64,000 nucleotides of DNA, taken from Escherichia coli. GTDB lineage: Bacteria; Pseudomonadota; Gammaproteobacteria; Enterobacterales; Enterobacteriaceae. How positions within the stretch are numbered: the stretch's first letter is position 1; each line of letters starts with the position of its first letter. Location: assembly GCF_016903815.1 (NCBI RefSeq), contig NZ_CP069973.1. One strand, given 5' to 3'. The notes beneath the pieces were generated by a model, which had not been told where the DNA came from, searched no databases, and saw only the letters and a list, made by a program, of their open reading frames with translations. The position numbers and the translations under genes are program-made. Shown here one piece after another: positions 49,589 to 55,098 of the stretch.

Positions 49589-50332
49589 TTATTTCCCGCC
49601 CGCCAAATCGATAAAACTTCCCGTGACGTAAGAGGCTTTATCACTTAGTAGCCAGACAATGGCCTGCGCGACCTCTTCTGCCTGTCCACCACGCTGCATG
49701 GGGATGTTCGACTTAACGCGATCGACGCGTCCAGGCTCGCCGCCGCTGGCGTGCATTTCGGTATAAATAAACCCTGGCCGCACGCAGTTAACGCGGATCC
49801 CCTGCGCGGCGACTTCCAGCGATAGTCCGGTGGTTAACGTATCAATCGCCCCTTTCGATGCCGCGTAATCAACATATTCCCCTGGCGAACCCAACCGTGA
49901 GGCCACCGAAGAGACATTGACGATAGCGCCGCCACTGCCACCATTTTTAAGCGCCATGCGTTTTACCGCCTCGCGGCAGCAGAGAAAATATCCCGTCACG
50001 TTGGTGGAAAGTACTCGGTTGATTCGCTCTGCGGTAAGGTTTTCAACGGTGCACTGGGTAAACAAGATCCCGGCGTTATTGACCAGCGCTGCTAGCGGTT
50101 CATCGTGCTGATCGATTGCTGTAAACATCGCAACGACCTGGTTTTCGTCGCTGATATCCGCTTGGAGCACGAATGCTTTGCCACCGGCTTGCGTTATTAA
50201 GTTCATCACTTCCTGCGCCGCGTGGAGGTTTTGCTGATAATTAACCGCCACCGTATACCCTTCTTGCGCCAACAGTAATGCAGTTGCCCGCCCGATGCCG
50301 CGACTGCCACCAGTCACAAGTGCTATAGCCAT
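49589..50332 (-). CDS. ygfF: Short-chain dehydrogenase/reductase YgfF
   Basis: 247-aa ORF; MAIALVTGGSRGIGRATALLLAQEGYTVAVNY is an SDR Rossmann motif. Confidence 0.85.
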   Translation of the reverse strand: MAIALVTGGSRGIGRATALLLAQEGYTVAVNYQQNLHAAQEVMNLITQAGGKAFVLQADISDENQVVAMFTAIDQHDEPLAALVNNAGILFTQCTVENLTAERINRVLSTNVTGYFLCCREAVKRMALKNGGSGGAIVNVSSVASRLGSPGEYVDYAASKGAIDTLTTGLSLEVAAQGIRVNCVRPGFIYTEMHASGGEPGRVDRVKSNIPMQRGGQAEEVAQAIVWLLSDKASYVTGSFIDLAGGK

Positions 50333-50409
50333 TTGTTTTTCCGAGAAAAATTAATTCGTTGACGTATCTTTGAGATTGCTAACAAACTGGCTCAATCTTC
50401 AATGTTGGC

Positions 50410-50520
50410 ACGCTTTTCCCCCTCGCCCTTTCAGGGAGAGGGCCGTGGTGAGGGTAAATATTCGCGCCAGTGCCGGCCTGTTCCCCTCACCCTAACCCTC
50501 TCCCCAAAGGGGCGAGGGGA
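50410..50520. repeat. Pair of inverted GC-rich palindromic repeat units (CCCTCGCC...GGTGAGGG / CCCTCACC...GGCGAGGGG)
   Basis: ccctcgccctttcagggagagggccgtggtgaggg and ccctcaccctaaccctctccccaaaggggcgagggg are near reverse complements of each other, in the ygfF-gcvP intergenic region. Confidence 0.7.
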
Positions 50521-50554
50521 CTGTCTGAGCACTTTTGTACTTTGTCATCTGACT

Positions 50555-50580
50555 AAAAAGGCGCCGAAGCGCCTTTAGAA
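50555..50580 (-). terminator. Rho-independent terminator of gcvP
   Basis: Hairpin ggcgccgaagcgcc preceded on the + strand by an A-run, which is a T-run on the minus-strand transcript, about 20 nt 3' of the gcvP stop. Confidence 0.65.
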
Positions 50581-50598
50581 AATAGTCGAATCAGTGAA

Positions 50599-53472
50599 TT
50601 ACTGGTATTCGCTAATCGGTACGCAGGAGCAGAACAGGTTACGGTCGCCGTAAACATCATCCAGACGTTTCACTGTCGGCCAGTATTTGTCTGCCACACC
50701 TGCCGGGAATACCGCAACTTCACGGCTGTACGGATGCGCCCACTCGGCGACCAGTTCGCTCTGAATGTGCGGCGCGTTCACCAGCGGGTTATCTTCCAGC
50801 GGCCAGACACCGGCTTTCACCTGGTCAATTTCTGCGCGGATAGCCAGCATCGCGTCGATAAAGCGATCCAGTTCCACTTTGCTTTCAGATTCAGTCGGTT
50901 CAACCATCAGCGTACCCGCCACCGGGAACGACATCGTCGGCGCGTGGAAACCGTAGTCGATCAGGCGCTTGGCAATATCCAGCTCGCTGATGCCGGTTTC
51001 TTCTTTCAGCGGGCGAATATCGAGAATACATTCGTGCGCCACGCGACCGTCGCGACCGGTATACAGCACCGGGAAGGCATCCTGCAGGCGGCTGGCAATA
51101 TAGTTGGCGCTGAGGATTGCCACCTGGCTTGCTTTTTTCAGCCCTTCTGCGCCCATCATGCGGATGTACATCCAGCTGATTGGCAGGATAGAGGCGCTAC
51201 CGAACGGTGCCGCAGAAACCGCGCCCTGACGGGTTAACATGCCTTCGATGTGCACCACGCTATGACCCGGTACAAACGGTGCCAAATGCGCTTTCACGCC
51301 GATCGGTCCCATACCCGGACCACCACCGCCGTGCGGAATGCAGAAAGTTTTATGTAGGTTAAGGTGTGAAACGTCCGCACCAATAAAGCCCGGCGAGGTG
51401 ATGCCAACCTGGGCGTTCATGTTCGCGCCATCAAGGTAAACCTGACCGCCGAACTGATGCACGACTTCACACACTTCACGGATCGTTTCTTCATACACGC
51501 CGTGGGTAGAAGGATAAGTCACCATGATACAGGAGAGGTTATCGCCCGCCTGTTCCGCTTTCGCGCGCAGATCAGTCAGATCGATGTTGCCGTTTTTATC
51601 ACACGCCACAACCACCACCTGCATTCCTGCCATATGTGCAGAAGCGGGGTTAGTTCCGTGCGCAGAAGCCGGGATCAGGCAGATATCGCGATGCCCTTCG
51701 TTGCGGCTTTCATGATAATGACGAATCGCCAGCAGGCCCGCGTATTCGCCCTGTGCGCCAGAGTTCGGCTGCATACAAACGGCGTCGTAACCGGTCAGTT
51801 TCACCAGCCAGTCAGCCAGCTGCGCAATCATCTGCTGATAACCTTCGGCCTGCTCCGGCGGGCAGAACGGGTGCAGTTCGGCAAATTCCGGCCAGGTGAT
51901 TGGGATCATCTCGGCGGCGGCGTTCAGTTTCATGGTGCAGGAACCCAGCGGGATCATCGCCTGATTCAGCGCCAGATCTTTACGCTCCAGCGAGTGCATA
52001 TAGCGCATCATTTCGGTTTCGCTGTGGTAGCGATTAAACACCGGATGGGTGAGGATTTCGTCGTCGCGCAGCATCGCAGGTTGAATAGAGCGGCTGTCGT
52101 GAGCCACGTCTTTGTCCAGCGTGTCGATGTCCAGGCCGTGGTTATCCCCCAGCAGTACGCTGAAAAGCTGCATCACGTTTTCGCGCGTGGTGGTTTCATC
52201 AAGGGTGATCCCAACCGCGTTCAGGATATCGCTACGCAGGTTGATTTCAGCCGCTTCGGCACGCGTCAGTACGCCCGCCTTGTCGGCCACTTCCACACAC
52301 AGAGTGTCGAAATAGTGCGCATGGCGCAGCTTCAGACCTTTTTGTTGCAGGCCTGCCGCCAGGATATCGGTCAGACGGTGAATGCGGTTAGCGATACGTT
52401 TCAGGCCAACCGGGCCGTGATAAACGGCATACAGGCTGGCGATGTTTGCCAGCAGTACCTGGGAAGTACAAATGTTGGAGTTCGCTTTCTCACGACGAAT
52501 ATGTTGCTCGCGAGTCTGCATCGCCATGCGCAGAGCGGTGTTGCCAGCTGCATCTTTCGATACACCGATAATACGGCCCGGCATTGAGCGTTTGTATTCA
52601 TCTTTCGCCGCAAAGAATGCCGCGTGTGGGCCACCGTAGCCCATCGGCACGCCGAAGCGTTGCGCCGAACCAAAAACAATATCCGCGCCCTGTTTACCCG
52701 GCGCAGTTAACAGCACCAGCGCCATAATATCGGCGGCAACGCTGACCACAATTTTGCGTGATTTCAGTTCGCTAATAAGCGCAGTGTAGTCGTGAATTTC
52801 ACCGGTAGTGCCTACCTGCTGTAACAGCACGCCGAAGACGTCCTGATGGTCGAGCACTTTTTGCGCGTCATCGACAATCACTTCAAAACCAAAGGTTTCG
52901 GCACGAGTACGGACCACATCCAGCGTTTGCGGATGCACATCGGAAGCCACGAAGAAGCGGTTGGCATTTTTCAGTTTGCTGACGCGTTTCGCCATCGCCA
53001 TTGCTTCGGCGGCAGCGGTGGCCTCGTCCAGAAGAGAAGCAGAGGCCATATCCAGTCCAGTCAAATCCAGCGTTACCTGCTGGAAGTTGAGCAGTGCTTC
53101 AAGGCGGCCCTGGGAGACTTCAGGTTGATACGGAGTGTACGCGGTATACCAGCCCGGATTTTCCAGCATGTTACGCAGGATAACCGGCGGTAGCTGCACG
53201 GCGGTGTAACCCATGCCGATGTAAGACGTGAAGCGTTTATTGCGACTGGCAATAGCCTTGAGTTCTGCCAGTGCGGCGTATTCGGTCGCCGGTGCGCCAA
53301 CCTGCGGTGGTGTCGCAAGCTGAATATCTTTCGGCACAATCTGGCCGGTCAGCGCGTTTAACGATTGTGCACCAACGGCATTCAGCATTTCTTGCTGTTG
53401 CGCGGCGTCCGGTCCGATATGGCGTTCAATAAAAGCGCCGCTGTTTTCAAGCTGGCTTAACGTCTGTGTCAT
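50599..53472 (-). CDS. gcvP: Glycine dehydrogenase (decarboxylating), glycine cleavage system P protein
   Basis: 957-aa [55 protein letters not shown]. Confidence 0.94.
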
Positions 53473-53504
53473 GAGCGATGGTTCCTGAAACGTGCAGTGA
53501 ATTG

Positions 53505-53580
53505 TGAACCTCTCTCCTTACGAAGAGAGTGAGGGTGAGGCATAAATTTTCCTCACCCTGATCCTCTCCCGCAGAAGAGG
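53505..53580. repeat. Second copy of the GC-rich palindromic repeat family (GAGGGTGAGG...CCTCACCC...CCTCTCCC)
   Basis: cctctctccttacgaagagagtgagggtgagg...cctcaccctgatcctctcccgcagaagagg in the gcvH-gcvP spacer shares its motifs with the 50410..50520 element. Confidence 0.65.
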
Positions 53581-53590
53581 AATAAAGCCG

Positions 53591-53983
53591 TTACTCGTCT
53601 TCTAACAATGCTTCGTATGCGGTCGCATCCAGCAGTGATTCCAGTTCGCTTTCATCGCTGGCTTTGATTTTAAAGATCCAGCCACCTGCATACGGTTCGC
53701 TGTTCACCAGTTCCGGGGAATCGCTCAGTGCATCGTTTACCGCCACGATTTCACCGCTTACTGGCGCATAAATGTCTGACGCCGCTTTTACTGATTCGGC
53801 AACCGCGCAGTCATCGCCCGCGCTAACCGTTGCGCCCACTTCCGGCAGGTCAACAAACACCATATCGCCTAACAGCTCCTGAGCATGTTCGGTAATACCA
53901 ACGGTGTAAGTGCCGTCGGCTTCTTTACGCAGCCATTCGTGTTCTTTGCTGTATTTCAGTTCTGCTGGTACGTTGCTCATCAA
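53591..53983 (-). CDS. gcvH: Glycine cleavage system H protein (lipoyl carrier)
   Basis: 129 aa; [49 protein letters not shown]. Confidence 0.94.
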
Positions 53984-54003: not shown

Positions 54004-55098
54004 TCACGCGACGGCTTTGCCGTTACGCACAAAAACAGGTTTTGTCACTTTAACCGGCATTTCACGGTTGCGAATTTGCACAATCGCCGTTTCGCCAATA
54101 CCTTCCGGCACGCGCGCCAGCGCAATGCTGTAACCCAGCGTCGGGGAGAAAGTACCGCTGGTGATAATGCCTTCATGCTGGTTGCCCTGCGCATCGGTAA
54201 AGCGTACCGGCAGTTCATTACGCAGCACGCCTTTTTCGGTCATCACCAGACCAACCAGTTTTTCTGTACCATGCTCACGCTGCACTTCCAGGGCTTCACG
54301 ACCGATAAAGTCACGATCTGCCGGTTCCCAGGCGATAGTCCAGCCCATGTTGGCGGCTAAAGGAGAAATAGTTTCGTCCATCTCCTGACCATAAAGATTC
54401 ATGCCCGCTTCCAGACGCAGCGTGTCACGCGCGCCCAAGCCACATGGCTTAACACCCGCTTCCACCAGCGCACGCCAGAAATCGGCCGCTTTTTCATTGG
54501 GCAGCGCAATTTCATAGCCCGCTTCACCGGTATAACCAGTGGTGGCAATAAACAGATCGCCCGCCTGCACGCCAAAGAACGGTTTCATCCCTTCCACCGC
54601 CTGACGCTGGGCGTCATTAAACAGTGTGGCAGCTTTTGCCTGCGCATTCGGCCCTTGCACGGCAATCATGGAAAGGTCATCACGAACGGTAATTTCGATG
54701 CCGAAAGGTTCAGCGTGTTGGGTAATCCAGGATAGGTCTTTTTCGCGGGTGGCGGAGTTAACAACGAGGCGGAAGAAATCTTCAGTAAAGTAGTAGACGA
54801 TGAGGTCATCTATCACACCGCCAGAGGCATTCAACATCCCCGAGTAAAGGGCTTTGCCGCTTTTGGTGAGCTTCGCCACATCGTTCGCCAGCAGATAACG
54901 CAGAAACTCCCGGGTGCGGCTGCCGCGGAGATCGACGATGGTCATATGTGACACATCAAACATTCCGGCATCGGTACGTACCGCATGATGTTCGTCGATT
55001 TGCGAACCGTAATGCAGCGGCATCATCCAGCCGTGGAAATCCACCATGCGAGCGCCGCAAAGCGTGTGTTGTTCGTACAAAGGAGTCTGTTGTGCCAT
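54004..55098 (-). CDS. gcvT: Aminomethyltransferase, glycine cleavage system T protein
   Basis: Start [52 protein letters not shown] gives 364 aa. The upstream extension of the 418-aa track ORF is rejected. Confidence 0.93.

Follow-up and report, generated by a model that had tools for sequence, protein, structure and literature searches.

The glycine cleavage operon gcvTHP occupies the minus strand of the 64,000-nucleotide (nt) stretch of Escherichia coli DNA analysed here (contig NZ_CP069973.1; hereafter the window, whose positions are used throughout), with gcvT upstream of gcvH, gcvP downstream of it, and ygfF (49589-50332) followed by bglA beyond gcvP. Over the 10 kb compared, the window is 99.14% identical to K-12 MG1655. 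An initial annotation, made from the letters alone, had proposed that a GC-rich repeat element lies in the gcvH-gcvP spacer, that it is related to a second element on the other side of gcvP, and that it may influence differential expression within the operon or else reflect local repeat spread. Here we describe this spacer element, which is probably a degenerate inverted pair of BoxC repeats (also known as PIT or TMECO) that is fixed in the gcvH-gcvP spacer of E. coli and acts at the level of the RNA.

The element and its hairpins

The element lies where it had been placed, wholly intergenic within the 118-nt gcvH-gcvP spacer of the gcvTHP operon, and the three motifs by which it had been recognised were recovered at the expected positions (GAGGGTGAGG at 53531-53540, CCTCACCC at 53551-53558 and CCTCTCCC at 53563-53570). 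Its extent needed correction from 53505-53580 to 53510-53581, where an inverted-repeat search revealed a 72-nt imperfect palindrome with arms at 53512-53540 and 53551-53579 (Table 1). No repeat feature is present in the RefSeq annotation of MG1655 at this element or at its partner downstream of gcvP.

Folding of the element in the mRNA sense revealed three adjacent hairpins (H1, H2 and H3) with a joint free energy of -40.5 kcal/mol (z=-5.1), and 0 of 200 shuffled sequences were as stable. None of the three hairpins is followed by a U-tract, what comes after the central one being CACUCUCUUCGUAAGG rather than the U-run of an intrinsic terminator, and a terminator scan found no minus-strand site in the gcvH-gcvP spacer. 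The loop and 3' arm of H3 (53510-53522, minus strand) read GUAAGGAGAGAG, which strongly resembles a Shine-Dalgarno sequence and lies downstream of the RNA 3' end described below; a small open reading frame behind its UAAGGAG was considered and rejected, as there is no start codon at a usable distance.

Table 1. Positions of the spacer element, its hairpins and the neighbouring features of the gcv locus in the window.
Feature	Position	Strand	Remarks
Whole spacer element	53510-53581	minus	72-nt imperfect palindrome, BoxC-like decayed inverted pair (putative); transcribed within gcvTHP mRNA; three adjacent hairpins
Hairpin 1 (H1)	53562-53581	minus	UCCUCUUC-UGCG-GGAGAGGA; 8 bp including one G-U; UNCG-type loop; -11.8 kcal/mol alone
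Hairpin 2 (H2, central)	53532-53559	minus	AGGGUGAGG, 10-nt A/U-rich loop, CCUCACCCU; 9 bp; -15.1 kcal/mol alone; protective 3' stem-loop
Hairpin 3 (H3)	53510-53529	minus	CUCUCUUC-GUAA-GGAGAGAG; 8 bp; GNRA-type loop, GUAA/GCAA among alleles; -10.6 kcal/mol alone
RNA 3' end of stable gcvT-gcvH transcript	53528 (MG1655 3,049,097)	minus	4 nt after H2, two bases into the 5' arm of H3
Better-preserved putative BoxC half	53551-53572	minus	GGGAGAGGA-TCA-GGGTGAGG, purine blocks 2 and 3; HMM E=0.012, 12.3 bits, third-best match in window
More decayed putative BoxC half	53509-53539	plus	CCTCTCTCC-TTACG-AAGAGAG-TGA-GGGTGAGG; inverted partner of the other half; HMM fourth-best in window
gcvH-gcvP spacer	53473-53590		118 nt
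gcvP leader with Shine-Dalgarno	53473-53507	minus	...AUUCACUGCACGUUUCAGGAACCAUCGCUC-AUG; outside the repeat; 3' boundary of the variable slot
gcvH coding sequence	53591-53980	minus	Upstream gene, stabilised
gcvP coding sequence	50599-53472	minus	Downstream gene, less stable
gcvP terminator	50557-50580	minus	U-run present; RNA 3' end at 50554
Canonical BoxC/PIT/TMECO inverted pair	50420-50518	plus and minus	#10, type B, 50420-50455 plus; #11, type A, 50483-50518 minus

A mapped RNA 3' end and differential decay

Published Term-seq data place a strong RNA 3' end directly after the central hairpin. An end at MG1655 3,049,097 on the minus strand, classed as 'orphan', appears in supplementary file 1 of Adams et al. 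(2021, PMC7815308); we verified that it is window position 53528, and it falls between CACU and CUCUUCG. Its read count was 412,219 as against 36,065 at the gcvP terminator (LB, optical density 0.4; PMC7815308), so that the signal after H2 exceeds the one at the operon's own terminator by a factor of about 11, and the end is listed in all three growth conditions of that study. The mapped end lies two bases inside the 5' arm of H3, and the stable RNA species therefore lacks this last hairpin. The Rho-dependence tables of the same paper hold only 5' untranslated region (UTR) and internal 3' ends, and the 'orphan' gcvH site is not among their entries.

The second line of evidence comes from mRNA decay. 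Dar & Sorek (2018, PMC5927463) counted gcvP-gcvH-gcvT among the operons whose segments decay differentially, gcvH being the gene that is stabilised, and reported a gcvH/gcvP half-life ratio of 2.21±0.02 from a rifampicin chase together with a steady-state mRNA ratio of 5.03±1.33. Their table S6 gives H2 as the protective 3' structure of the gcvH/gcvP pair (-15.7 kcal/mol, in BW25113), and we found that their 60-mer ends at the base at 53528 and folds into H2. As a class, their protective structures were described as having no U-tract and no significant Rho-dependent termination, and were read as barriers to 3'-5' exonucleases, as in malE-malF. The same gene pair in Salmonella SL1344 has a ratio of 2.64 and a 3' end after a REP-like hairpin (table S5, PMC5927463). 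The suggestion that the element influences differential expression within the operon agrees with this 3' end and with the half-life and mRNA ratios of 2.2 and 5.0. The central hairpin combines what is expected of a protective 3' stem-loop, being a stable hairpin with no U-tract that has an adjacent 3' end in two independent Term-seq datasets and a longer-lived, more abundant RNA upstream. The paradigm of such a stem-loop is reportedly the REP sequence of malE-malF, attributed to Newbury in 1987.

Relative to the stem-loops catalogued in PMC5927463, the gcv hairpin is likewise intercistronic, has no U-tract, carries its 3' end just downstream, and is preceded by the stabler and more abundant gene. 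It differs in that it is probably BoxC-derived and not a REP, a repeat origin that is not noted in that paper, and in that most of the stem-loops reported there lie inside the downstream coding sequence whereas this one is intergenic. The SMRT-Cappable-seq and Conway 2014 papers do not mention gcv in text or supplements.

Resemblance to a decayed BoxC pair

BoxC repeats are said to go back to work by Bergler in 1992 and Bachellier in the 1990s. The family was rediscovered as the potential intrastrand triplex (PIT) and renamed TMECO (Hoyne and Maher 2000; Holder et al. 2015, PMC4666352); Holder et al. listed 23 strict copies in MG1655, with inverted A+B pairs at five loci, and gave the consensus CCCTCNCCC-N3-6-GGGNGAGGG-N3-GGGNGAGGG, in which the linker defines the subtype (TTA in type A, CCG in type B). 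According to the same paper, neither promoter nor terminator activity was found for BoxC (the lack of the latter reported for PIT/BoxC by Maher and co-workers, cited there), nor any link with gene function; canonical TMECO oligonucleotides form triplexes in vitro, and TMECO loci are more variable between strains, while in vivo footprinting did not support a stable triplex even at a canonical copy.

The spacer element is not among the 23 published copies. A BLAST search with the 81-nt element in a 28-Gb database cannot show family membership of so short and diverged a copy, and we therefore built a profile hidden Markov model (HMM) from the 23 published TMECO sequences and scanned the 64-kb window with nhmmer. 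The two halves of the spacer element ranked third and fourth among all matches, with nothing else close, and the two halves of the partner element downstream of gcvP scored E=1.5e-7 and 2.2e-12. The match of the minus-strand half, which scored E=0.012 in the window and E=0.0015 when the model was run on gcvH-gcvP spacers, is limited to model positions 13-34. This best half reads TTCCTCTTC-TGC-GGGAGAGGA-TCA-GGGTGAGGA, and H1 corresponds to BoxC blocks 1 and 2, aligning with CCCTCTCCC-TTC-GGGAGAGGG of Enterobacter cloacae.

Considered as a whole, the element has the layout of a canonical pair, with a pyrimidine block, a loop, a purine block, three nucleotides, a second purine block, a central loop and then the mirror image. 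It shares with the family an intergenic position, a high GC content, blocks of the CCCTCNCCC and GGGNGAGGG kind, of which the purine blocks GGGAGAGGA-N3-GGGTGAGG are recognisable, and the arrangement as an inverted pair round a short spacer that is seen in pairs 1+2, 7+8, 10+11, 12+13 and 17+18. It departs from the family in that its pyrimidine blocks have decayed to CCTCTTC and CTCTCTTC, its linkers are both TCA and thus neither type A (TTA) nor type B (CCG), its central spacer measures 10 nt as against ~27 nt in pair 10+11, and it is fixed in the species whereas canonical loci are variable. Since one half scores E=0.012 and seven other species have a strong BoxC copy in the same slot (see below), a decayed BoxC pair is the most likely reading of the sequence. 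The formation of an intrastrand triplex appears less likely for this copy, given that its G-runs are interrupted.

The proposed kinship with the partner element was borne out in direct comparison. The pattern CCTCACCCTNAYCCTCTCCC is found at 50485-50504 and at 53551-53570 with 18 of 20 positions identical (2 matches in the window as against 0.00 expected from 100 shuffles), an inverted match of 80-88% links the arms of one element to those of the other, and in a three-way alignment the purine and pyrimidine blocks are collinear. The common sequence is short and of low complexity. Sequence similarity taken alone is weak, and the argument for homology rests on the architecture and on the cross-species data.

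Other repeat and RNA families did not account for the element. Rfam has no family for it, as a search of 9 kb round the locus showed; the one candidate, whalefall-1, stayed below threshold (19.8 bits, where the gathering score is 37; E=0.22) and was rejected as a chance match on low-complexity sequence. No REP or ERIC consensus motif occurs in the E. coli spacer, although such motifs are obvious in the spacers of Citrobacter and Kluyvera.

Conservation within E. coli

The spacer element is present in 5425 of the 5426 complete E. coli genomes, and BLAST with the 81-nt element found it at the orthologous site only (median one place per genome). Comparison of six alleles, a small sample that spans the main identity classes from 96.6% to 100%, revealed five substituted columns and one indel, all of them in the loop of H2 or H3, and 0 changes in the 50 stem bases. 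A departure from this pattern was seen in E. coli VTB96775v, where the spacer is 170 nt long as against 118 nt (locus positions 201-370) through a 52-nt palindromic expansion of the element; the expansion forms a 31-bp perfect hairpin, the spacer as a whole folds at -94 kcal/mol, and the change may be a hairpin-templated rearrangement or an assembly artefact.

The gcvH-gcvP slot in other species

To place the E. coli element among its relatives, we used the gcvH region of 80 listed species representatives, which yielded 79 spacers; these are without Salmonella, E. albertii, E. fergusonii and Klebsiella, and the information on Salmonella comes from table S5 of Dar & Sorek (PMC5927463) only. Among the loci listed, the Enterobacteriaceae spacer has two parts, a variable slot on the 5' side and the gcvP leader on the 3' side. 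The leader, some 35 nt long, is nearly invariant over Enterobacteriaceae genera, a conservation that exceeds the need of the Shine-Dalgarno sequence alone, while the remainder of the spacer is replaced from genus to genus. What fills the slot is always some stable hairpin in those Enterobacteriaceae whose spacer is of about this size.

Strong BoxC copies (HMM E from 3e-10 to 5.5e-6) occupy the slot in seven species, namely Buttiauxella, strain RIT691, Enterobacter cloacae, Pluralibacter gergoviae, Pseudocitrobacter, E. asburiae and a metagenome-assembled genome (MAG), and the pair is complete, with its two halves, in Buttiauxella, E. cloacae, Pseudocitrobacter and E. asburiae. These copies can be aligned with the E. 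coli element over their full length. Closer to E. coli, a second Escherichia lineage (L003; identity of 94.7% over gcvT-H-P) shows a copy that has decayed in another way, with TTA/TAA linkers and CCCTCTTC-TTCG-GGAGAG retained.

Elsewhere the slot is filled by other structures. REP sequences occur in Citrobacter, Lelliottia, Trabulsiella and some Enterobacter, and ERIC sequences in others. Beyond the Enterobacteriaceae, the slot contains a GC hairpin with a T-run behind it; this is so in Photorhabdus, Serratia, Yersinia, Dickeya, Pectobacterium, Providencia and Shewanella. The REP/BIME and ERIC/IRU families resemble the E. coli element in being small palindromic intergenic repeats in the identical slot (in Citrobacter, Salmonella, Lelliottia, Kluyvera and others), and the REP-like hairpin of Salmonella likewise carries a mapped 3' end, but they are unrelated to it in sequence. 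An internal terminator located behind gcvH was found to stop ~71% of transcripts in Dickeya dadantii, and the authors of that study state that such a site agrees with E. coli studies (PMC9239193). The two systems share their operon position and a lower level of gcvP than of gcvTH RNA, and they differ in that the Dickeya hairpin is followed by a U-run and acts at transcription whereas in E. coli there is no U-run and the association is with differential decay.

Single loci in this set showed larger insertions, with three tandem ERIC/IRU-like copies in a 445-nt spacer of a Providencia MAG (L077) and an ERIC-like insert in a 319-nt spacer of Serratia marcescens (L073). At the other extreme, the spacer measures 23 nt in Erwinia (L046, L051 and L075) and 8 nt in Rosenbergiella (L074 and L080), with no hairpin; as these two genera have almost no spacer, a structured slot is not universal in Enterobacterales.

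Proposed mode of action and alternatives

Taking the structural, transcript and comparative observations together, we propose that the element, once transcribed as part of the gcvTHP mRNA, would fold into its three hairpins with no U-tract, that the message would be cut, presumably by an endonuclease, or at times terminated, somewhere downstream, and that 3'-to-5' exonucleases would degrade it back until they stall at the GC-rich central hairpin. What would be left is a stable gcvT-gcvH RNA ending 4 nt after H2 at 53528. In this way gcvH mRNA would come to be ~2.2 times longer-lived and ~5 times more abundant than gcvP mRNA, and a single promoter would yield more T and H protein than P protein. 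The H protein serves as a co-substrate that shuttles, and the plant glycine cleavage complex contains it in excess. Exonuclease stalling as the cause, the nature of the initiating cleavage, descent from BoxC and the stoichiometric benefit are the parts of this account that we infer.

Several observations weigh against the proposal and are best considered together. With regard to ancestry, the strict TMECO consensus is absent from the spacer element on both strands, the plus-strand half (E=6.9) is not significant alone, and the shared sequence consists of low-complexity purine and pyrimidine runs. BoxC and REP replace each other even within Enterobacter, and with so fast a turnover of the slot the E. 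coli copy may have been inserted independently instead of being orthologous to those of Enterobacter. Column-wise covariation over ten genera was not decisive, with 84.7% of cells paired as against 82.6% in shuffles (9 of 500 were as high), the stems being purine and pyrimidine runs in which the register can shift. With regard to function, we found no mutational study of the hairpin in the literature searched, so that its link with half-life is correlative. To generate the mapped 3' end, which falls within the 5' arm of H3, exonucleases would have to pass one hairpin of -10.6 kcal/mol and halt at the next. Finally, the abundance ratio of 5.0 is larger than the half-life ratio of 2.2, and a process beyond decay, such as leaky termination, may contribute (cf. 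section 6 of PMC5927463).

This last discrepancy favours a different account, in which the element is a partial terminator, polymerase stopping after H2 either intrinsically or through Rho with subsequent trimming, and the differential is set at synthesis rather than by decay. Such a role would be in line with the hairpin and U-run terminators that fill the slot of Photorhabdus, Dickeya and the other genera named above, with the ~71% termination in Dickeya, and with the view in PMC9239193 that an internal site is consistent with E. coli studies. It fits poorly with the E. coli spacer itself, where no hairpin has a U-tract behind it, where the terminator scan came out empty on the minus strand, and where the 3' end falls 4 nt past the stem within the CACU-CUCUUCG run; PIT/BoxC has moreover been reported to be without terminator activity (PMC4666352), and it is the half-life of gcvH mRNA that is longer. 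We consider partial termination as the principal explanation unlikely.

The points against BoxC ancestry would find a ready answer if the hairpins had arisen locally, from purine- and pyrimidine-rich sequence selected for folding, and resembled BoxC by composition. Only ~20 nt are clearly similar, the second half is without a significant match, the linkers are TCA/TCA and not TTA or CCG, and low-complexity stems align easily. Against convergence of this kind stand the collinearity of the entire five-block mirror layout with the canonical pairs, the TTA/TAA linkers kept by L003 along with CCCTCTTC-TTCG-GGAGAG, the strong BoxC copies at the same slot in seven species, and the third and fourth places taken by the two halves among the HMM matches in 64 kb, and we regard it as improbable.

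A neutral relic, that is, a dead repeat copy that folds by chance and whose 3' end is incidental and under no selection, would suit the general lack of association of BoxC with gene function, promoter activity or terminator activity and the variability of canonical copies between strains, but it is very hard to reconcile with an element fixed in 5425 of 5426 genomes where the canonical pair 3 kb away is covered in full in only 3006, with variation confined to loops, with a slot that always has a stable hairpin in Enterobacteriaceae of such spacer size, and with a differential that is conserved in Salmonella on a different hairpin. An element acting as DNA, by forming an intrastrand triplex or a cruciform with consequences for replication, recombination or local genome stability (the kind of role put forward for TMECO), is scarcely credible here, for although canonical oligonucleotides form triplexes in vitro, TMECO loci are more variable and VTB96775v has its palindromic expansion, the triplex consensus is broken in this copy (interrupted G-runs, decayed pyrimidine block), in vivo footprinting gave no support to a stable triplex even at a canonical copy, the stability of the locus across E. 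coli is exceptional, and the RNA data explain enough. A decayed BoxC pair acting on the mRNA thus remains the reading that we favour.

The canonical pair downstream of gcvP

The partner element that had been noted on the far side of gcvP is a canonical inverted pair of the family. In Table 1 of Holder et al. (PMC4666352) its halves are copy #10 (MG1655 3,045,989-3,046,024, plus strand, type B) and copy #11 (MG1655 3,046,087-3,046,052, minus strand, type A), and these coordinates map exactly onto 50420-50455 and 50483-50518 of the window. The type B half carries a single G-to-T difference in its third block, reading TGGTGAGGG here at position 50446 as against GGGTGAGGG in MG1655.

The pair lies between ygfF and the gcvP terminator, which has its 3' end at 50554, and so falls outside the gcv mRNA. 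Together with ygfF it forms an accessory segment (49589-50560), and positions 50340-50600 were covered to at least 80% in only 3006 of the 5426 complete E. coli genomes. In O157:H7 ECP17-1298 and in CE10, ygfF and the BoxC pair are absent, and what comes after the gcvP terminator is a 165-bp spacer containing a REP-like palindrome, with bglA next. The idea that repeats of one family on both sides of gcvP are significant found no support in this comparison, given that the downstream pair is beyond the terminator and on an accessory segment; on the same grounds a functional pairing of the two elements was rejected, and the presence of a copy on either side of gcvP looks coincidental. Nor is local repeat spread needed as an explanation, because other genera hold BoxC, REP or ERIC in the gcvH-gcvP slot.

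Implications for the repeat family

To our knowledge, BoxC/PIT/TMECO has been without a known function ever since the early 1990s, and tests for a role as promoter, terminator or triplex have met with no success. The repeat family and the role of the hairpin are both already published, separately, and neither of the two E. coli papers (PMC7815308 and PMC5927463) names a BoxC origin. What is new here, and of modest novelty, is the link of the protective hairpin to an uncatalogued, decayed and probably co-opted BoxC pair, along with the slot-filling pattern in Enterobacterales.

One may go further and ask whether BoxC repeats in general are barriers to 3' exonucleases, and thus modules of differential decay, with the gcvH-gcvP slot as a worked example in which a BoxC pair was co-opted and its stems came under selection even as it lost its identity as a repeat; we hold this to be possible rather than probable. 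Term-seq 3' ends in the Adams dataset lie at the hairpin base of further BoxC or BoxC-like copies (632,098; 847,200; 3,781,065, copy #17; 3,959,467, copy #20; and 4,231,270), and with no enrichment over other intergenic hairpins established, a general role as decay barrier is a hypothesis that these ends suggest. Equally tentative is the other part of the same reading, that BoxC, REP, ERIC or an intrinsic terminator fill the slot interchangeably across Enterobacterales.

If the link generalises, a repeat family that had no role would gain a concrete one, and interchangeable repeat hairpins and terminators would be seen to tune the ratios of the glycine cleavage subunits from a single promoter. 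Catalogues built on the strict BoxC consensus overlook co-opted relics, and the annotation of the gcv operon should add the internal RNA 3' end after gcvH.

Further RNA 3' ends at the start of the operon

The Term-seq data of Adams et al. also contain two strong 3' ends at the beginning of the operon, at window positions 55033 and 55154 on the minus strand (MG1655 3,050,602 and 3,050,723). One is early in gcvT (105,625 reads) and one belongs to the gcvT 5' UTR (80,101 reads), and the two hint at premature termination or processing where the operon starts.

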